A DNA stretch of 64,000 nt from Thermodesulfobacteriota bacterium (GTDB lineage: Bacteria; Desulfobacterota_D; UBA1144; Nemesobacterales; JAJCZQ01). The notes below the pieces were generated by a model. That model saw only the letters and a list, made by a program, of their open reading frames with translations. It was not told where the DNA came from and made no database searches. The position numbers and the translations under genes are program-made. Shown piece by piece: positions 1,202 to 64,000 of this stretch (within the stretch, counting starts at the first letter, position 1; each line of letters begins with the position of its first letter). Location of the stretch: the NCBI GenBank assembly GCA_965203965.1, contig CBDBDR010000017.1:864911-928910 (forward strand), read 5' to 3'.

Positions 1202-2371
1202 ATGAACAAATTTCCTTCATTTAAAGATCTTATAAAAGGCAATATTCTGAAAGTCTCCGAGATAAACTCACAGATCCGGGGGATTATTGAGAAAGAATTT
1301 AAAAGCCACTACCTGTGGGTCGAAGGAGAAATATCAAACTTCAAAGGAAACTACACCAGTGGTCATTGGTATTTTTCACTGAAAGACAAAAAAAGCCTGA
1401 TCTCCGCAATCTGTTTTAAGAGGGAGAACCAGTATTTTAAATTCACTCCCAAGGAAGGACAGGAAGTAATATGCTGCGGACAAATTAACATTTATGAAAA
1501 ACAAGGAACCTATCAGTTAAATGTTACCTATATTGAACCAAAAGGTATTGGATCACAACAACTTGCCCTTGAACAACTGAAAGAAAAACTGAAGACGGAA
1601 GGACTTTTTGACAGTGAGCGCAAACGACAGTTGCCATTTTTGAGCAGGAAAGTCGGTGTTGTAACTTCACCAACCGGTGCGGCAATAAGAGATATAATAA
1701 AAGTAACTGGGCGCAGGTTTATCAACACGGAGATACTTATTTCACCTGCAAGGGTTCAGGGAGAAAACGCACCTTCGGAAATAGTAAAAGCGTTGGAGTT
1801 GCTATACAAGGTAAACGATATAGATCTGATTATAGTTGCACGTGGAGGTGGCTCATCAGAAGACCTGTGGGTATTTAACGAGGAGTCAGTTGCAAGAACC
1901 ATCAGTATATCTCCCGTTCCCACTATATCAGCAGTAGGACATGAAACAGATATAACGATTGCAGATTTAGTCGCTGATATAAGGGCAGCTACTCCATCCG
2001 TGGCGGCAGAAATTGCCCTAAAAGATAAAAACGAGCTTTTATATGAATTGAAAACCCTGGGAAAAAGAATTAATAATTCTATGAAAAATCGTCTGGAAGT
2101 CTTGATGGGGGATTTAGAACATATTAAAAGTAGAATTAATTGGAACATTAAATTTAACTACAATCAGAAACTATCACAACTTAATTTGCTGTCCGCAACT
2201 CTGGATAGCATAAGTCCACTAAAAGTGTTGAAAAGAGGCTACAGCATTGTATATAATGAGAACAAAAAATATGCTATAAAAAATTCAGAAGATATAAAAA
2301 TAGGAGACAAAATTATAATCAGGTTTCATAAAGGACAGGCAAATTGCACAGTAGATAAAACTACTGGCTGA
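1202..2371 (+). CDS. xseA: exodeoxyribonuclease VII large subunit
   Basis: N-terminal OB-fold region (YLWVEGEISNF...GHWYFSLKD) and central catalytic region typical of XseA. Length 389 aa. Confidence 0.85.
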   Translation: MNKFPSFKDLIKGNILKVSEINSQIRGIIEKEFKSHYLWVEGEISNFKGNYTSGHWYFSLKDKKSLISAICFKRENQYFKFTPKEGQEVICCGQINIYEKQGTYQLNVTYIEPKGIGSQQLALEQLKEKLKTEGLFDSERKRQLPFLSRKVGVVTSPTGAAIRDIIKVTGRRFINTEILISPARVQGENAPSEIVKALELLYKVNDIDLIIVARGGGSSEDLWVFNEESVARTISISPVPTISAVGHETDITIADLVADIRAATPSVAAEIALKDKNELLYELKTLGKRINNSMKNRLEVLMGDLEHIKSRINWNIKFNYNQKLSQLNLLSATLDSISPLKVLKRGYSIVYNENKKYAIKNSEDIKIGDKIIIRFHKGQANCTVDKTTG

Positions 2372-3365
2372 ATACAGTGAGTTCTGGCAAGTCAATAACT
2401 GAAATACCATCCCTGATCAAACTGCTTTTTATTTTATATTCCGGATCCCTATCAGTAAATAAATACTTGAGTCTTCCACCAAAGAATTCTTTTAATGAAA
2501 CCGTCCCGTTTTGTTCACTAAAGCACTTTACCGCCCATTCTATACCTTCACTCGAGAGAAACAGAACCGTCGGCATAACTTCCAACACATCGTTTAAAAA
2601 ATCCATCTTATTTTCGGCAATTGCTCCTCTGTTTCCTATGAAAATTGGCAAAAAATTAGCAAGCTCTGAAAAAGAACCCTGTGATGCAAGGTAGGAAAAA
2701 GACGAATCTTCCGGAGTTACAAATCTCAACTCTTTACAAGATAGGCGTAGAAGATTCAAAAGAAGCTTCTGAGTTATAATTTTACTTTCCATCTTTTCAT
2801 TATTAAAACTGTAGAAATTTATAGCAGGAGTGTCTGGGTTAACAGATATGAAAACCTCTGTTAATTCATCTTTGAGCTTTCTTGCCTTCAAAAATCCGAA
2901 TTTCACGACAGATTTGTAATCTACGATTTTATCATGCAATCCCGGACTGTTTTTAGAAAACAAGAATATCTTTTCAATGGCTTTATTTGATTCCAATACC
3001 TCTTTGAATCTGCTCAATACATCTTCATTACTGACAAAAACAAAGTTAATTTTTTCCTTATTCAGTATTTCACCAATATTCTCTACCTGAACAATGGAAG
3101 GTGCAGAAACCGAACAGCATCCCAGTAAAAACAGCGATGACTCTACAAATAAACGCTCAAGTGTATTTGGAGAAATTATCAAAACCCTACTCTCCTTGGT
3201 AAATCCACAATCTAGCATGAAAGCGGCAATACTATTGACCTGCGTATTAAAATCAAGCCATGTTATCTGTTTCCAACTCCACCCGTCACGCTTTTGAAAA
3301 AGCAGCCTAGACTTATTTGCCTTGACTCTATCTTGAAAAAAATCATAAAACCTTGTTTCAGTCAT
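2361..3365 (-). CDS. AMP-binding (acyl-CoA synthetase)-like protein, N-terminal-domain homolog with a degenerate ATP motif
   Basis: The translation resembles the N-terminal half of adenylate-forming enzymes (KQITWLDFNTQVNSIAAFMLDCGFTKESRVLIISPNTLE). The position where the T/SGTTGxPKG motif should be instead reads INFYSFNNEKMESKIITQ. The start was moved to the internal Met (MTETRFYDF) because the longer ORF would overlap the divergent cca start. Confidence 0.4.
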   Translation of the reverse strand: MTETRFYDFFQDRVKANKSRLLFQKRDGWSWKQITWLDFNTQVNSIAAFMLDCGFTKESRVLIISPNTLERLFVESSLFLLGCCSVSAPSIVQVENIGEILNKEKINFVFVSNEDVLSRFKEVLESNKAIEKIFLFSKNSPGLHDKIVDYKSVVKFGFLKARKLKDELTEVFISVNPDTPAINFYSFNNEKMESKIITQKLLLNLLRLSCKELRFVTPEDSSFSYLASQGSFSELANFLPIFIGNRGAIAENKMDFLNDVLEVMPTVLFLSSEGIEWAVKCFSEQNGTVSLKEFFGGRLKYLFTDRDPEYKIKSSLIRDGISVIDLPELTVFSQ

Positions 3366-3419
3366 AAAATCTCCATAATTAATAGTAAGGGATGATTCAG
3401 TTAATATACTACACAAGTA

Positions 3420-4787
3420 ATGTTTGAACAGGTCACAGTTAGCAGGAATTTTGAGCAATTTCAAGGAAGAGCATATAACTCAGCAAAGTCCATCGTCAAA
3501 AAGCTCCATGATAATGGGCATAAGGCATTTTTCGTTGGAGGATGTGTCCGCGATGCCTTGCTCAACTCGCAACCAGCAGAGTATGATATTACCACAAGTG
3601 CCAGCCCGAAAGTGATACAAAATCTGTTCAAAAGAAATGTCCCAATTGGCGAAAAATTTGGCGTCATACTTGTATTGCTCAATGGTTTTCAGTTTGAGGT
3701 TGCTACTTTTAGAGAAGAGAGTAAATACGAGGATGGCCGACATCCTTCAATCGTGAGCTATAGTAACAGCGAGAAAGATGACGTTTTGAGAAGGGATTTT
3801 ACAGTCAATGGAATGCTTTACGACCCGCTGGAGAATAAACTCCTTGACTACGTTGAGGGCGAAAAAGACCTGCTGAAGCAAACTATCAGAACAATTGGCA
3901 ATCCTTGTGTGAGATTTGATGAAGACAAACTCAGGATGATAAGAGCCGTTAGGTTTGCTTCAAGATTCTCATTCGAAATAGAAAAAAATACCTTCAATAC
4001 TATCAATGAACTGAGCAGTCAAATAAACGAGGTGAGCAGCGAGAGAATAAGGGATGAAATCTTAAAGATAATAACTCAGCAAAACCCTGGAAATGGGATT
4101 AGACTTCTTAATAAAGCAAAGTTACTGGAGCAGGTATTACCCGAGGTGTCCAATATGGCAGGTGTGGAGCAACCTCCGGAATTTCATCCTGAGGGAGATG
4201 TATTTATACATACCTGCATTGTACTGGACAAATTGTATGAAATAACGGAAGGCAACTACGCACCCGATACAGCGATGGGAGCATTGTTGCACGACATCGG
4301 AAAACCTGCGACTTTTGAAATATCAGACAGAATCCGATTTAACGGACATGACAGAGTGGGGGCATTCATGGCAAAGAAAATTTGCAGGAAACTGAGATTT
4401 TCCAAAAAACAAACTAACCATATTACTTCACTGATCAGAGAGCACTTAAAATTCAAAGATGTTCCCAATATGAGAGAAAGCACGTTAAAAAAATTCCTTT
4501 CTATTCCACGTTTTGATGATCACCTGACAATGCATCTTGCAGACTGCCTTGGAAGTCATGGGATAAGAGAAATATATGACTTTATAAAGAACAAGATGGA
4601 AACCATACCAGAAGAAGAAATAAAACCACCTCCTCTTTTGAATGGTAAAGACTTGATCAGACTCGGATTGAAACCCGGACCTTTGTTTGCAAAAATCTTA
4701 AATAAAATTGAAGAGCATCAACTTGAAGGCATGCTGAAAAACAAGGATGAAGCTATGGAATTTGTCAGGAACAACTTCAACGCTTGA
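3420..4787 (+). CDS. cca: CCA-adding tRNA nucleotidyltransferase with HD domain
   Basis: Pol-beta nucleotidyltransferase head (FFVGGCVRDALL...DFTVNGM), followed by an HD-domain region (HPEGDVFIHT...LLHDIGK). 455 aa. Confidence 0.85.
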   Translation: MFEQVTVSRNFEQFQGRAYNSAKSIVKKLHDNGHKAFFVGGCVRDALLNSQPAEYDITTSASPKVIQNLFKRNVPIGEKFGVILVLLNGFQFEVATFREESKYEDGRHPSIVSYSNSEKDDVLRRDFTVNGMLYDPLENKLLDYVEGEKDLLKQTIRTIGNPCVRFDEDKLRMIRAVRFASRFSFEIEKNTFNTINELSSQINEVSSERIRDEILKIITQQNPGNGIRLLNKAKLLEQVLPEVSNMAGVEQPPEFHPEGDVFIHTCIVLDKLYEITEGNYAPDTAMGALLHDIGKPATFEISDRIRFNGHDRVGAFMAKKICRKLRFSKKQTNHITSLIREHLKFKDVPNMRESTLKKFLSIPRFDDHLTMHLADCLGSHGIREIYDFIKNKMETIPEEEIKPPPLLNGKDLIRLGLKPGPLFAKILNKIEEHQLEGMLKNKDEAMEFVRNNFNA

Positions 4788-55125: not shown

Positions 55126-55202
55126 CGGGGCGTGGCGCAGTTGGCTAGCGCGCGGCATTTGGGATGCCGAGGTCGGAGGTTCAAGTCCTCTCGCCCCGAC
55201 CA
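55126..55202 (+). tRNA. tRNA-Pro (anticodon TGG)
   Basis: Acceptor CGGGGCG/CGCCCCG, anticodon stem CGGCA/TGCCG with loop TTTGGGA, T-arm GGTTCAAGTCC, encoded CCA. Confidence 0.85.
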
Positions 55203-55210
55203 TTATTACA

Positions 55211-55372
55211 TCATACCCTCTCCACAACCATAGCTATCCTCATTTCTCCCCCTATGCAGAGAGATACCATTCCATACTTGGCATTCTTATCACTATTAAG
55301 TTCATAAAGAATTTTATAAGCATTATGGCTCCCGTTGCCCCAACGGGGTGTCCAAGTGCAATTATAACGGGA
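55211..55372 (-). pseudogene. decayed duplicate of the 3' end (last ~53 codons + stop) of the thiolase gene
   Basis: About 93% nucleotide identity to 55754-55915. It begins exactly at the stop codon and carries a 1-nt deletion that shifts the frame. It abuts the 3' end of tRNA-Pro. Confidence 0.7.
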
Positions 55373-55577: not shown

Positions 55578-55753
55578 ACCTCTCTAATCCGAGCCTTATT
55601 GGAATTGAGAAAAGCAAAAAATATGTTGATATGGCAAAAAAGAGACTGAAAAAAATTATGGCTATGCCAGAATCACAATTAAAAACATGGATAATAAAAT
55701 TCCATCACAAACATTATTTGTAAGTTGATTAATCAAAAGAGCCTTTACTATTA

Positions 55754-56950
55754 TCATACCCTCTCCACAACCATGGCTATCCCCATTCCTCCTCCTATGC
55801 AGAGAGATACCATTCCATACTTGGCGTCCTTATCACTATTAAGTTCATAAAGAAGTTTTACAAGCAATATGGCTCCCGTTGCCCCAACGGGGTGTCCAAG
55901 TGCAATAGCTCCACCATTCACGTTTAACTTGTTTTGCGGAATTGGAAAATCCCTTAACACCGCAAGGGACTGTGCCGCAAAGGCTTCGTTCAACTCATAA
56001 ATATCTATATCTTCAATACCCAGTCCTGATCTATCCAGTGCAGCCTGCATTGCCGAAACGGGACCAATTCCCATAATAGCCGGATCAACTCCTGAAACTG
56101 CATAAGATCTTATTAACCCCAGTGGTTTCAGTCCTAATTTTTCAACTTTTGATTCAGAAACCACTATCATGGCGGCAGCACCGTCGTTGATCCCTGAAGA
56201 GTTACCGGCAGTTACCGTTCCATCTTTTTTAAACACGGGTTTCAACTTATTTAGCTGTTCGGAAGTTACAGAAGGACGGGGATGCTCATCAGTTTCAAAT
56301 TTTGTGGGATCACCTTTTCTCACTGGAATAAAAACAGGAACGATCTGATCCGCAAACTTGTTATTCTCCAGTGCAGATTTGGCTTTTAGCTGACTGTTGT
56401 GTGCAAACTTATCCTGCTCTTCTCTGGATATCTCATACTTTTGTGCAAGATTTTCCGCGGTAACTCCCATGTGGTAATTGTTGAACACGTCCCATAGACC
56501 ATCGTAAACCATCCCATCTATCAATTCGTCAGACGGCGAAGACATCTTGTATCCCCATCTTGCTTTCTTCAAGTAAAAAGGTGCCTGGCTCATATTTTCA
56601 ATTCCCCCTGCGATGATACAGTAGCAGTCTTCTGCCTTGATAGCCTGTGCGGCGTGTATAACGGACTGCAAACCTGAGCCACACATCCTGTTGATCGTCA
56701 TTGCAGGAGTTTCAAACTTTAATCCAGAATTGACTGCCACCTGCCTTGAAGGATTTTGACCCAATCCCGCACCCAGTATATTGCCCATTATACAATCGTC
56801 TATTTCATTTGGATCAATGGTCGTTTCGTTTATGATCTCTTTAACAACTACCGTTCCCAGATCAACGGCAGAAACATCTTTTAAACTCCTCCCAAATGAA
56901 CCGATTGCTGTCCTGAGTGGTTTGCAAAGTAAAACATCTTCCATGACCAA
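55754..56950 (-). CDS. acetyl-CoA C-acetyltransferase (thiolase II)
   Basis: Thiolase active-site regions (NRMCGSGLQ, GHPVGATG, CIGGGMG). 398 aa. Confidence 0.9.
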   Translation of the reverse strand: MVMEDVLLCKPLRTAIGSFGRSLKDVSAVDLGTVVVKEIINETTIDPNEIDDCIMGNILGAGLGQNPSRQVAVNSGLKFETPAMTINRMCGSGLQSVIHAAQAIKAEDCYCIIAGGIENMSQAPFYLKKARWGYKMSSPSDELIDGMVYDGLWDVFNNYHMGVTAENLAQKYEISREEQDKFAHNSQLKAKSALENNKFADQIVPVFIPVRKGDPTKFETDEHPRPSVTSEQLNKLKPVFKKDGTVTAGNSSGINDGAAAMIVVSESKVEKLGLKPLGLIRSYAVSGVDPAIMGIGPVSAMQAALDRSGLGIEDIDIYELNEAFAAQSLAVLRDFPIPQNKLNVNGGAIALGHPVGATGAILLVKLLYELNSDKDAKYGMVSLCIGGGMGIAMVVERV

Positions 56951-59874: not shown

Positions 59875-62832
59875 TCAACTTTCCGTAAATATGCGAGAAG
59901 GATCCCCGATCCAGTAATCCTTATAAGACTCCGGGGGATTGGCACCAGGATTGTAAAGAAGTAGGTTTACCGAAACATTGTATTTCCCATGTTTGAAAAC
60001 ACGAACCTTGTCGTCTTCTGAGAAAAATTTTTTGTAGCCGTCAATTTTATGGCAGGAAGCAGTATATTCGTCTCCCTTTGGATCAACGAACACAATCCGG
60101 TATTCATTCTTTTTACACATCCAGAATACAAAATCGGGTAGAAAACGGCGATATTCGTTTTTATCCGAATCGTAGTAGGGAATATGAACATTGTCCAAAG
60201 ACTCATCTATCTTGCTGAACATCCAGGCGTCCCACCCCGTTTCATTGTTTTGCAACCATTGTTCCAAATCGTTAAGAAAGTCAGCCTCGCTTTGGGTTTT
60301 AATTATGTGCTGTATGTAATCCGCCGTGTCATTTCCCAAAATAACGGGCAGATAGTAGTGATTGGCAAGTTTCTTAACCGTCAATTGCAGATAGGTTTCC
60401 TCATCTGACCCCTGAGAAATATCGTTGAATTGTTCAAGCGAAATCTTTCCTTGGGAAAGTCGTCCCGCCGCTTTCCTTATTTCCTCGCCAGATGCTTTCC
60501 CTTTTTCAACATTTGCTATTTTTTCTTGAAGTTCCCGATAATGTTCCGGATGAACGCGAATGTGGCGAAAATGAACAATGTCTTTGTCCTCATCCATTTT
60601 CCGAACGCCGTCTGAGACTTTGACGGATTTAGTAAGGTGGGACAAAAAACGCTCTTGCAGAAAAGGAATCATCGCATAAGGTTTTCCCTGAATTTCCACG
60701 GCGCTCAAACATCCTACCGTATCGCGTAATTCTGCAATCTGCGAAAACACAAGTCCATCTCGCACTGCAAAGACGGAATCCGACGTTCTGTCTATCCATG
60801 CTTTGAATCTACGCAATGTTTCTTCGCTCATTGAAAACGGAGACCTGACCAAATTCCCCTTATCTTCCCGATATTCTGGGATCAACAACGGCATCTCCTC
60901 TCCTTCAACTTCAGGTATCAGTGCCTTTTCAAAACCTTCCAGTTTTTCAAAGTCTGGGTGTTTCTCTGTTTCCAATCCTTCCAGCACGGCTTTCACGGCC
61001 TTGCGATTGGTGGCAAAGAGAAAAAGAGTTTCCAACGGGGCTATTTGGTCGTGATGAGACTCTAATGTGGTCTTTTTTTCTCCCTCTAGAATTGGTAACA
61101 AATAGGCGAGACGGCGACGATGTTTAGGAATCGGCTCTAAGCGAACACCTCGCCCGACGGACTGCACAACAAACTTCTTCGCATCACTACCGCCGATATT
61201 GATAAAATTAATAACGTTGGGACGATTGGAATCCCAACTTTCAAAGAAGGTGCGAGAGCCCATCAGAATTGTGATTGGGCTTTGCTCCAATCCGTCAAAA
61301 AATGATTGCTCCTGTAATGCGGTTGTCTCTTCATATCCGACCAGAATTTTATTGCGCCACTTTGTAGTGTCGCCAATGCGTATAAGCGCAAAAGGAGAGT
61401 CAGCATTCTTCATCTGGAAAGCCAACTCTTTATTGTCACTACTACGAATATACTCTAACGCTCCCTTTTTCCGGCTGAGGAAAATTGCCGCACGTAAATC
61501 GGTGATTTTCATCGTTTTAATCGGGGTTTCATCAATACCGATAATCCCGCCACCGTCTTTTCCAAAAAGAAGAGGTGTATTTTTCCAATCTTCAATCAGT
61601 TCCTTTTTTGAATCTTCAAAAATTTTCCTGTCAATCTCACCTGTGGCGATTTCACGTAAGGTTTGAAAGAACGCCCATAAATCGTTTCTTTCGTTCTCAA
61701 TATCCGTATTTACAGAGTTAACCAAAGTCAACATAAGAGGAAGGTGATACAGTTCATTAAAACCGGTATTCTCCCGAAGCATATCAACCCGCATGGATAC
61801 ATAAGCAAGAGTTATGAGGGACTTCAAAACGATTTTTTGTCTCTCCGCATGGCTGATTTCCTCTCCTCTATTTCTGAACGCGATATATTCCCTTTCGTTC
61901 AGGTAAATACTTTTTCCATAGCCATTTTTTGTAAAGTCCTCCAGATTGTATTTTTTAACGGTTGTTACAATGTCCTCTCTGTCGGTAAACGTAGCGGAAA
62001 AATTAAAAAGAAAACCCTCCCGTGCCATAACTTTGTAATACGCCTGCCGCTTGGAATCTTCCTTGCCACCCTTGTGCGCCTCATCTAGAAGCACGTACCA
62101 CTTGCCACCGTTTTCATAAGTTCGGTAATCTGTCAGTGCATCTTTTTGAACATCAGAAATGTTGTCGCTACGGTGATAATAGACCGTCACAGTTTCTCCA
62201 AGCCGCGCTTGACGGCTACGGTGCATTTCACGAAGCGGAACAAGATCAATATGCAAACCGGAGCGGTTAAACTCATCTACGGTTTGCCGGATTTGTTTGA
62301 GCAGATGCTTACTTGGTGCAAGTATAAGAATGTTATGAAGCGGAATTTCACCGTGCTTTTGCAAGGAATGTAGATATTCAATCAGCTTGACCATGACCAG
62401 CGTTTTACCGCTCCCCGTAGCCATCCAGAAACACATGCGGTTTATAAAATTCCAATATGGAATTTCATCTCCAAAGGAACGAATGTAATCCGCGAGAATT
62501 CGGAACACAGGACTTTGTTTGTCATTATTTCTGTCAGTCCGTGTTTCATACTTCTGTATATGCGGAATACCCGCGTCTTTATATAGATCACTAAAACTTC
62601 TCTTACGTTTATCTTTTACCGAAAGTGGTTCGCTGGGAGACCAATTATTGTCGTCTTTTCCGTAATGCAAATAAAGAGCGCGGGCAGCGTTCCTTAAAGC
62701 ATTCGCCTGATAATCGTAAAGCGTCTTTTCAGTAGAAAAACGCTCAATGTCAGGAACACGCCAAGTTTCCGGCAGGTCGCCGTAGTTCAGGGATTGGGTT
62801 ATAAGTTCAAGAGATAGCATTAAAACTTCCAC
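59875..62832 (-). CDS. SF2 DEAH-box helicase with C-terminal PD-(D/E)xK-like nuclease motif (type III restriction Res-like)
   Basis: Helicase motifs: Q-like YDYQ, motif I MATGSGKT, motif II LLDEAH, motif III FSAT, motif VI QSVGRGVR. The C-terminus carries PDFVFW...IVFVDPKG (PD...D-x-K). 985 aa. The start overlaps the upstream gene by 13 bp. Confidence 0.75.
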   Translation of the reverse strand: MEVLMLSLELITQSLNYGDLPETWRVPDIERFSTEKTLYDYQANALRNAARALYLHYGKDDNNWSPSEPLSVKDKRKRSFSDLYKDAGIPHIQKYETRTDRNNDKQSPVFRILADYIRSFGDEIPYWNFINRMCFWMATGSGKTLVMVKLIEYLHSLQKHGEIPLHNILILAPSKHLLKQIRQTVDEFNRSGLHIDLVPLREMHRSRQARLGETVTVYYHRSDNISDVQKDALTDYRTYENGGKWYVLLDEAHKGGKEDSKRQAYYKVMAREGFLFNFSATFTDREDIVTTVKKYNLEDFTKNGYGKSIYLNEREYIAFRNRGEEISHAERQKIVLKSLITLAYVSMRVDMLRENTGFNELYHLPLMLTLVNSVNTDIENERNDLWAFFQTLREIATGEIDRKIFEDSKKELIEDWKNTPLLFGKDGGGIIGIDETPIKTMKITDLRAAIFLSRKKGALEYIRSSDNKELAFQMKNADSPFALIRIGDTTKWRNKILVGYEETTALQEQSFFDGLEQSPITILMGSRTFFESWDSNRPNVINFINIGGSDAKKFVVQSVGRGVRLEPIPKHRRRLAYLLPILEGEKKTTLESHHDQIAPLETLFLFATNRKAVKAVLEGLETEKHPDFEKLEGFEKALIPEVEGEEMPLLIPEYREDKGNLVRSPFSMSEETLRRFKAWIDRTSDSVFAVRDGLVFSQIAELRDTVGCLSAVEIQGKPYAMIPFLQERFLSHLTKSVKVSDGVRKMDEDKDIVHFRHIRVHPEHYRELQEKIANVEKGKASGEEIRKAAGRLSQGKISLEQFNDISQGSDEETYLQLTVKKLANHYYLPVILGNDTADYIQHIIKTQSEADFLNDLEQWLQNNETGWDAWMFSKIDESLDNVHIPYYDSDKNEYRRFLPDFVFWMCKKNEYRIVFVDPKGDEYTASCHKIDGYKKFFSEDDKVRVFKHGKYNVSVNLLLYNPGANPPESYKDYWIGDPSRIFTES

Positions 62833-63293
62833 CCTTCTTTTGTCATAAATCCAATTAAATTCTCACACTCTATAAAATATTCCCTGCATATAACCGGAAT
62901 ACATGGAGCATTGGGTTTTTCTTTTTCTTGTGTTACGACACACCCCTGCATGGAATGTGCAAGTGCTATAATAAAAGGATCTGCCACAGGGTTTCCAGCA
63001 ACAATATTTCTGCTTTTTATCAGTTTTTGCCAGTGTGCATTTTCGAATAGCTCTCTAACAAATTTAGTCTGTTTTTGATCGGGAATGTGAAACAATGCAG
63101 AATTATGTTTTGCCCAATCAGCTAAACTGTCATCTCTTTTGTTAATTTCACGACGCGTTTCCCTAACTGAAAGAATGTCTCCACCTACCACCATACCATC
63201 AAATTTCTCCCACAAAGTTGTGAAAACATTTCTGTCGTAATTTCCACCTCTAAATAATGTAATGAAAGCACTTGTGTCAAAGATATATTTCAC
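62820..63293 (-). CDS. PIN-like domain protein (DUF4411-like)
   Basis: 157 aa. N-terminal YIFDTSAFI and a C-terminal acidic PVADPFIIALA, consistent with a PIN-like fold. The stop overlaps the helicase start, and the start overlaps the upstream peptidase stop. Confidence 0.5.
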   Translation of the reverse strand: MKYIFDTSAFITLFRGGNYDRNVFTTLWEKFDGMVVGGDILSVRETRREINKRDDSLADWAKHNSALFHIPDQKQTKFVRELFENAHWQKLIKSRNIVAGNPVADPFIIALAHSMQGCVVTQEKEKPNAPCIPVICREYFIECENLIGFMTKEGWKF

Positions 63294-63991
63294 TAACCTC
63301 TGCCTAACTGTTTTTCAACAAGGTAACCTTCAAGTTTTTCAATATTTTTTATTTTCATATTTAAAACTTGAGACATTTCATTTTCACTAATTCTGTTCTG
63401 GCGATGCTTGGTAAAGAGATTCTGTAAAAACGCTTTACCCCAATATGAGATATTATTCCAATAATAATCACCTCCATCACCCGTTTTATCTTCTCTGTTG
63501 TATTTCTTAAAAGACTCTTTCATTTCTAGAAAAATATTGTGAGAGATCAAGTTGTTTGATTTACACCTTACAAGAAGCATTAGAGGAGTAACCTTGTAGA
63601 GACGTGCTACTCTAGTGTAAAAATCTTTGCTTCTGCTGTTGCCTTGCGAAACTTGTCTTTTTAAATCATCGAGGGGAACAAGAGCAGAACCAGCAACACT
63701 ATCAAAATAATGTTCTAATCCCTGGCTATCCTCACTTATCTGTATTCCATGTTCACTCGATGTTACACTGCTCTTTCCGTGCAACAAATGAGCCAATTCG
63801 TGCAATAATGTGAAAATCTGGCGCCCTTTTACTTCCTGACTGTCAAGACAAATAACAGGAAATTCCTCATCATAAAGACAAAATCCCGACAAAGCTGTGG
63901 ACCTGAAGGGCCAGCGAAAAACGAAGATGCCTTGTTTTTCTATAGCATCTCTCCAAGATTCCAATGCCTCAATATAAGAATTAATCTGCAA
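63293..63991 (-). CDS. ImmA/IrrE-family Zn-metallopeptidase (COG2856-like); N-terminus may extend beyond window
   Basis: HEXXH motif LLHELAHLLHG in the usual ImmA/IrrE context. No in-frame stop lies between the first Met and the window edge, so the protein may be longer than the ORF as called. Confidence 0.7.
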   Translation of the reverse strand: MQINSYIEALESWRDAIEKQGIFVFRWPFRSTALSGFCLYDEEFPVICLDSQEVKGRQIFTLLHELAHLLHGKSSVTSSEHGIQISEDSQGLEHYFDSVAGSALVPLDDLKRQVSQGNSRSKDFYTRVARLYKVTPLMLLVRCKSNNLISHNIFLEMKESFKKYNREDKTGDGGDYYWNNISYWGKAFLQNLFTKHRQNRISENEMSQVLNMKIKNIEKLEGYLVEKQLGRG

Positions 63992-64000
63992 TTGCTCCTC

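Follow-up and report, generated by a model that had tools for sequence, protein, structure and literature searches.

Gene layout at the window edge

The DNA analysed here, called the window throughout, is a stretch of 64,000 nucleotides (nt) from contig CBDBDR010000017.1 of a Thermodesulfobacteriota bacterium, and it ends in three open reading frames (ORFs) on the minus strand: 59875-62832 (985 amino acids, aa, when read from a GTG), 62820-63293 (157 aa) and 63293-63991. A first-pass annotation, made from the letters of the window, read these as an ImmA/IrrE-type peptidase, a PIN-like DUF4411-type protein and a helicase-nuclease resembling the Res subunit found in restriction–modification (R-M) systems of type III, and proposed that the last of these is a stand-alone effector gated by the protease or by a sensor. 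The three ORFs exist as described and no methyltransferase gene lies inside the window, but a mod methyltransferase gene adjoins immA just past its edge; the operon consists of four genes, mod–immA–DUF4411–res, of which the window holds the distal part only.

The extension comes from a 6.4-kb public contig (L001) retrieved by exact-sequence look-up of the DUF4411 protein; it is identical to window positions 61897-64000 (100% over 2104 bp) and runs 4337 bp past the edge. A single 1,507,946-bp NCBI/ENA contig, further, bears exact copies of all four proteins: Mod, ImmA, DUF4411 and the 981-aa Res. Since mod, encoding 846 aa, ends 1 nt before immA, Res is not stand-alone, and the gated-effector proposal falls to the very check, extension of the contig, that had been named as able to refute it. 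Res looked like an orphan effector only because the window stops where it does, and there is no call for a new system with a protease-gated nuclease. The result matters mainly as a correction of that orphan-effector reading.

The four genes are packed without gaps to speak of. The mod stop and immA start are joined as TGAaATG, the immA stop and DUF4411 start have base 63293 in common (TAGTG), as the first-pass annotation had it, and the DUF4411 stop overlaps the res ATG at 62820 as TAATG. The 13-bp overlap reported earlier at 62820-62832 holds only if res begins at GTG 62832; public gene calls start it at ATG 62820, a protein with exactly these 981 aa is recorded, and alignments of Res homologues start near residue 5-8. 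The peptidase frame stays open as far as base 64000, which means that the window truncates the gene: its HEXXH, ImmA/IrrE-type character stands, but the full product is a 393-aa protein with an N-terminal helix-turn-helix (HTH) domain. The operon is flanked by a divergent ilvD/edd-type dehydratase gene upstream of mod and by a beta-oxidation operon.

Promoter and terminator scans returned no more sites than in shuffled sequence, and the terminator scan showed no terminator after res; the sole plausible promoter-like candidates are one upstream of mod and one for the downstream acyl-CoA dehydrogenase gene. The GC content had been described as visibly higher in the cassette than in the beta-oxidation operon and taken as a sign of horizontal acquisition. 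It is 0.34-0.45 in the cassette versus 0.39-0.46 in the operon, and since GC is not elevated we reject this line of evidence for horizontal transfer.

Mod and Res resemble a type III R-M pair

Mod carries the Pfam N6_N4_Mtase domain (PF01555, 4.6e-35) and is covered by the PADLOC MTase_III model over nearly its whole length (PDLC03638, E=5.5e-260, aa 4-813). Motif IV (DPPF, ~aa 416) precedes motif I (FLGSGTT, ~aa 651), the beta-class order expected of a type III Mod, and between these motifs lies the variable target-recognition block: across 33 relatives the central aa ~440-680 are hypervariable, with 12-36% identity versus 72-92% in the flanks. Type III mod genes vary in just this way. The best sequence matches of Mod among solved structures are type III Mods, namely 6k0w and EcoP15I Mod (4zcf_A). 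The first 390 or so residues form a conserved N-terminal extension in which no Pfam domain was found, and which is covered by the PADLOC MTase_III profile only.

For Res, residue numbers refer to the 985-aa reading from GTG 62832 and are lower by 4 in the 981-aa protein. The N-terminal part matches Pfam ResIII/DEAD (2e-17, aa 128-284) and contains the superfamily 2 (SF2) helicase motifs GSGKT (Walker A, aa 140-144), DEAH (250-253), SAT (279-281) and QSVGRGVR (557-564), of which GSGKT, DEAH, SAT and the QxxGRGxR pattern are invariant in 58 homologues. The C-terminal PD-(D/E)xK motif noticed in the first-pass annotation is borne out in two ways, in that structure prediction models the last 196 residues as a PD-(D/E)xK nuclease fold and the residues E849, D900 and D917-P-K919 are invariant in the same 58-homologue alignment. 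An SF2 helicase/ATPase joined to a C-terminal PD-(D/E)xK nuclease is the architecture of a type III Res.

By its sequence, this Res is very distant from the Res subunits that have been characterised. Neither EcoP1I Res nor EcoP15I Res is matched significantly in sequence; a comparison with EcoP1I Res by hhalign is not significant (10% probability, motifs V-VI only), the Res family profile has zero matches among PDB sequences, and matches to NCBIfam are all sub-threshold. The PADLOC REase_III model gives 2.9e-21, on the N-terminal ATPase part only. The family is poorly covered by current REase_III models, and automated defence annotation may miss such systems. In precomputed annotations the Res homologues all carry the newer Pfam family PF27151 ('YagJ'), which is absent from the Pfam copy that we searched.

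The features of Mod and Res seen here are those by which Murray et al. (2021, PMC8259958) delimited type III systems in their diversity. The two genes are also co-oriented operon partners. Relative to EcoP1I and EcoP15I, the Mod of this locus is larger (846 aa versus ~645, with the ~390-aa N-terminal extension), and two extra genes stand between mod and res.

The ImmA–DUF4411 pair

The DUF4411 protein matches PF14367 from end to end (7e-29, profile positions 1-159 of 159), its acidic residues D6, D105 and E123 are invariant in 24 homologues, and it matches a solved DUF4411 protein, 9vzy_D (phmmer 1.8e-16). A full-length match together with a conserved acidic site places it in DUF4411.1, for which the label PIN-like is taken from the literature. 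In ImmA the peptidase domain is found both in the windowed ORF (Peptidase_M78, 3e-14) and in the full 393-aa protein (9e-14, with a weak N-terminal HTH_31 match), and the HExxH motif is present as HELAH. The protein further matches the PADLOC RmrA model (PDLC03947, 3.7e-21, aa 5-323), a PHROG transcriptional regulator family (1e-44), and 9vzy_A, the 393-aa HTH protein that is the partner chain of the DUF4411 protein in the same PDB entry (phmmer 1.5e-26, aa 10-381). Both chain types of 9VZY are matched by the pair; since the homologues of both proteins are chains of one co-crystal, these homologues form a direct complex. These searches uphold the domain names of the first-pass annotation for all three windowed proteins. 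Its remark that ImmA plus DUF4411 is a recurrent module of defence islands is right as well.

The pair also occurs by itself. More distantly related ImmA-to-DUF4411 pairs are found without Res on 5 IMG/VR viral contigs, and another adjoins a convergent type I hsdRMS cluster where no type III genes are present; the HTH-M78 gene is always accompanied by DUF4411, also when located away from R-M genes. From this distribution, the ImmA–DUF4411 pair is an autonomous module. Close homologues of the window's DUF4411 protein, at 56-64% identity, sit once more inside operons of this Mod-Res family (L084 and L086).

DUF4411.1 has been described as a predicted toxin, PIN-like, whose gene lies downstream of HTH-DUF955 fusions, the two forming a predicted toxin–antitoxin (TA) system (Matelska et al. 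2017, PMC5499597), and ImmA-type proteins are the RosmerTA antitoxins, a hub with many kinds of toxin partner, PIN-like ones among them (PMC10440598; bioRxiv 10.1101/2022.05.11.491447). As in these systems and in 9VZY, an antitoxin-like protein of ~390 aa that joins an N-terminal HTH to the HExxH of M78 is followed at this locus by an overlapping small gene for the predicted toxin. This predicted toxin differs from those of RosmerTA in being a DUF4411 PIN-like protein that matches no PADLOC RmrT model, and the pair is nested in an R-M operon rather than free-standing. No paper was found for PDB 9VZY/9VZZ.

Mod–Res pairing and cargo across relatives

The Res family comprises 3266 matches, the best 120 of which are 58-72% identical over their full length, and scanning one genome per species gave 80 Res loci. 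At 77 of the 80, res is preceded on the same strand by a gene for this Mod family, with or without ImmA/DUF4411, and therefore the partner of Res is Mod and not the peptidase pair. The combination of ImmA, DUF4411 and Res without Mod was not found in this set except at one locus, L024, where DUF4411 is degraded and Mod may lie past the 8 kb fetched.

In 38 of the 77 paired loci mod and res are adjacent or overlapping; the other 39 hold 0.4-7 kb of tightly packed, nearly always co-oriented cargo between them. Cargo is present at 28 of the 43 loci with at least 46% Res identity and at 11 of the 34 in the ~40% clade. Clustering of the cargo genes followed by profile searches sorted them into the groups listed in Table 1. 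The Res proteins nearest to that of the window (67-72%) sit with other cargo, and the loci that have the same cassette have Res at 57-62%. The cargo has the marks of embedded defence genes, being co-oriented, nested in a defence operon, variable among relatives and equipped with defence-type domains.

Two of the cargo types are candidate modules in their own right. One is a ~396-aa Schlafen-type protein (AlbA_2 plus HATPase_c_4) with a ~332-aa ParA/AAA_31 ATPase, which has partial matches only, to pAgo-associated PADLOC models, and may be an uncharacterised defence pair. The other is an ABC ATPase (clusters C2/C3) after which there always comes a ~187-aa protein for which no Pfam or PADLOC match was found. 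Two loci show additional copies of mod: in one (L012) two full-length mod genes stand in tandem upstream of a single res, and another (L036) has an extra mod 3' fragment upstream of res.

The closest Res relatives (at least 55% identity, L003-L047) are almost all from metagenome-assembled genomes named for sponge symbionts in several phyla (Spongiihabitans, Poriferihabitaceae, Porisulfidus, Nitrospirales, Arenicellales, Binatia and Limisphaerales), which suggests horizontal spread of the Mod-Res system within sponge microbiomes.

Table 1. Positions of the operon genes, junction cargo, remnants and neighbouring features (L numbers denote loci of the Res family; L001 is the public contig that extends the window)
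Feature	Locus	Position	Strand	Description
res	window	59875..62820	-	putative type III-like restriction subunit, 981 aa; 985 aa if GTG 62832 is used
DUF4411	window	62820..63293	-	157-aa PIN-like protein; predicted toxin/nuclease of the embedded pair
immA	window	63293..64000	-	3' two-thirds of a 393-aa HTH + ImmA/IrrE (M78, HELAH) gene; predicted antitoxin/regulator; cut by the window edge
mod	L001, outside window	1322-3862		846-aa methyltransferase gene
Mod N-terminal extension	L001	1322-2500		aa 1-390
full immA	L001	3864-5045		393 aa
candidate promoter-like site	L001	1258-1287		upstream of mod
HTH-M78 + DUF4411, window type	L018, L029			cargo
HTH-M78 + DUF4411, divergent 170-aa type	L004, L005, L027, L032			cargo
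ImmA–DUF4411 in larger cargo	L084			Mod–DUF4145–ImmA–DUF4411–Schlafen–ParA–Res
ImmA–DUF4411 as sole cargo	L086			Mod–ImmA–DUF4411–Res
AAA_15/AAA_21 ABC ATPase (HEC-02A/PD-T4-4_A/AriA-like) + 187-aa partner	L007 and eight others (9 loci)	L007 6057-8005		cargo
Schlafen AlbA_2–HATPase_c_4 protein + ParA/AAA_31 ATPase	~10 loci, among them L012, L084, L005, L020, L027, L032, L042, L044, L046	L012 5766-7957; L084 6595-8777		cargo
OLD/GajA/AriAB-like ATPases	6 loci			cargo
PtuA-like ATPases				cargo at mod–res junction
type II methyltransferase + GHKL ATPase + uncharacterised protein	4 loci			cargo
ThsB-like TIR proteins, Fic, DUF3800				cargo at mod–res junction
tandem mod genes	L012	1-2235, 3081-5762		both full-length
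extra mod 3' fragment	L036	2210-4924 and 5737-6045		upstream of res
remnants	L003	3147-3305, 3480-3749, 5515-5688, 8001-8159		res 5' and/or mod 3'
remnants	L004	3350-3562, 6102-6245		res 5' and/or mod 3'
remnant	L005	5502-5752		res 5' and/or mod 3'
remnant	L016	2295-2501		res 5' and/or mod 3'
remnant	L036	5737-6036		res 5' and/or mod 3'
remnant	L042	5513-5665		res 5' and/or mod 3'
thiolase gene 3' end	window	55753-55906		~150 nt
repeat of thiolase 3' end	window	55210-55362		93-96% identity
tRNA-Pro(TGG) gene	window	55126-55202		directly before the repeat

Possible scars between stacked cassettes

At six of the loci (L003, L004, L005, L016, L036 and L042) leftover pieces of the 5' end of res (aa ~4-70) and/or of the 3' end of mod stand between the stacked cassettes, and the res-5' remnants have 74-95% DNA identity to the resident res 5' end. 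These remnants suggest that cassettes were gained by recombination through the conserved R-M flanks. Apparent res-5' scars at two further loci, L026 and L046, were rejected as frameshifted gene starts.

Proposed function and alternatives

We think it likely that the operon encodes a putative type III R-M enzyme together with an independent, nested TA-like or abortive module, the two being co-transcribed and co-inherited. The mod and res genes would form a putative type III R-M system whose lineage is large and well conserved. If they work as EcoP15I does, a short asymmetric site would be methylated on one strand by a Mod2Res1 complex; the Res ATPase would drive movement along DNA, and the C-terminal PD-(D/E)xK nuclease would cleave unmodified invading DNA. 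The nested module, predicted to be of the RosmerTA or HTH-ImmA-plus-toxin kind, would sit between mod and res as a second unit, in which the HTH-M78 protein would bind and neutralise the DUF4411 PIN-like nuclease, with autoregulation probable, and a phage cue would free the nuclease and cause growth arrest or abortive infection. Nesting would bring co-transfer, co-expression and a second layer of defence, and the peptidase pair would not gate Res. The enzymatic activities, the neutralisation of the toxin in the host organism and the trigger are what we infer; gene order, domain identities, catalytic motifs and the pairing of Mod with Res are observed directly, as are the varying cargo and the independent occurrence of the pair.

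Several points weigh against this reading. The DUF4411 protein matches no PADLOC model at E<=0.1, and thus no RmrT model; our literature search found no published toxicity, defence or other functional test of a DUF4411 pair; and the tight translational coupling of the four genes would also suit a pair that is tied in function to the R-M enzyme.

Such a tie could take the form known from PrrC, with the pair wired to the type III enzyme, silent as long as Mod-Res is intact and released once the enzyme is blocked by an anti-restriction protein of a phage; the nuclease would then punish evasion. The nesting of the pair in the R-M operon with 1-nt junctions on either side, the return of the same pair to this slot at a number of Mod-Res loci (L018, L029, L084 and L086) and the precedent of PrrC, an R-M guardian embedded in the type IC EcoprrI locus (PMC12707154), all speak for this arrangement, but the slot holds many unrelated cargoes and is empty in half of the loci, and the pair owns an antitoxin-like partner with which its homologue forms a complex of its own in 9VZY. 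It occurs, moreover, where type III genes are lacking, both on contigs of viruses and next to a type I cluster, and has no match to PrrC-like models in Pfam, PADLOC or NCBIfam; we judge such wiring unlikely. The HTH-ImmA protein might instead be a switch of the C-protein or anti-repressor type, by which expression of res is delayed or tuned following transfer into a naive host, with DUF4411 as an accessory. An HTH regulator directly upstream of res in the operon, annotated by PHROG as a transcriptional regulator, would suit such a role, and in type III systems Res activity has to be delayed while the system becomes established (PMC12707154). Such a gene is missing, however, from most members of this Mod-Res lineage, the HTH-M78 protein travels with DUF4411 even away from R-M genes, and there is no intergenic operator space upstream of res, all of which makes a controller of this kind very improbable. 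The gated three-gene system of the first-pass annotation, a methylase-independent Res-like effector with an ImmA protease and a DUF4411 sensor, drew on the lack of a visible methyltransferase in the window and on the overlap of the three genes; with mod immediately upstream of immA on the same contig, and Res accompanied by Mod in nearly all loci whether or not the pair is present, we give it almost no credence. The putative type III enzyme with an independent nested module is the reading that we keep.

The locus itself combines known kinds of genes in a known arrangement, and the one element that is mildly new is the cargo slot that recurs between mod and res, with remnants of both genes between stacked cassettes. 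It is common for defence operons to have other defence genes nested in them, of which 96.7% are co-oriented (Payne et al. 2024, bioRxiv 10.1101/2024.01.29.577857). As in those systems, and as with PrrC in EcoprrI, co-oriented defence-type genes are here carried in a host operon and vary among close relatives. That work covered Hma, BREX, DISARM and type I R-M but not type III, and the slot here differs in being a single junction, between mod and res, with res-5' and mod-3' remnants between stacked cassettes. A carrier role of this sort is known for Hma, BREX, DISARM and type I systems; as far as we could find, none has been described for type III.

More speculatively, the mod–res junction could be a dedicated slot in a type III lineage especially frequent among sponge-symbiont genomes, with modules swapped and stacked by homologous recombination via the mod 3' and res 5' ends, and some cargo, such as ImmA/DUF4411, could be a back-up that fires upon inhibition of the type III enzyme. 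We hold this proposal tentatively, as possible but somewhat doubtful; if true, type III R-M operons would be mobile carriers and organisers of layered immunity. A type III lineage with diverse cargo at one junction in any case extends 'guilt by embedding' to type III, and the cargo yields candidate modules, among them the Schlafen/AlbA_2–HATPase_c_4 protein with its ParA-like ATPase and the ABC ATPase with its 187-aa partner. The locus is a clean natural case of an HTH-ImmA/DUF4411 pair co-expressed with a restriction system, and is tractable for testing an abortive layer.

A thiolase gene elsewhere in the window

Away from the operon, the 3' end of a thiolase gene in the window is repeated directly after a tRNA-Pro gene (Table 1). 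An insertion or rearrangement beside the tRNA seems to have left this duplication behind.

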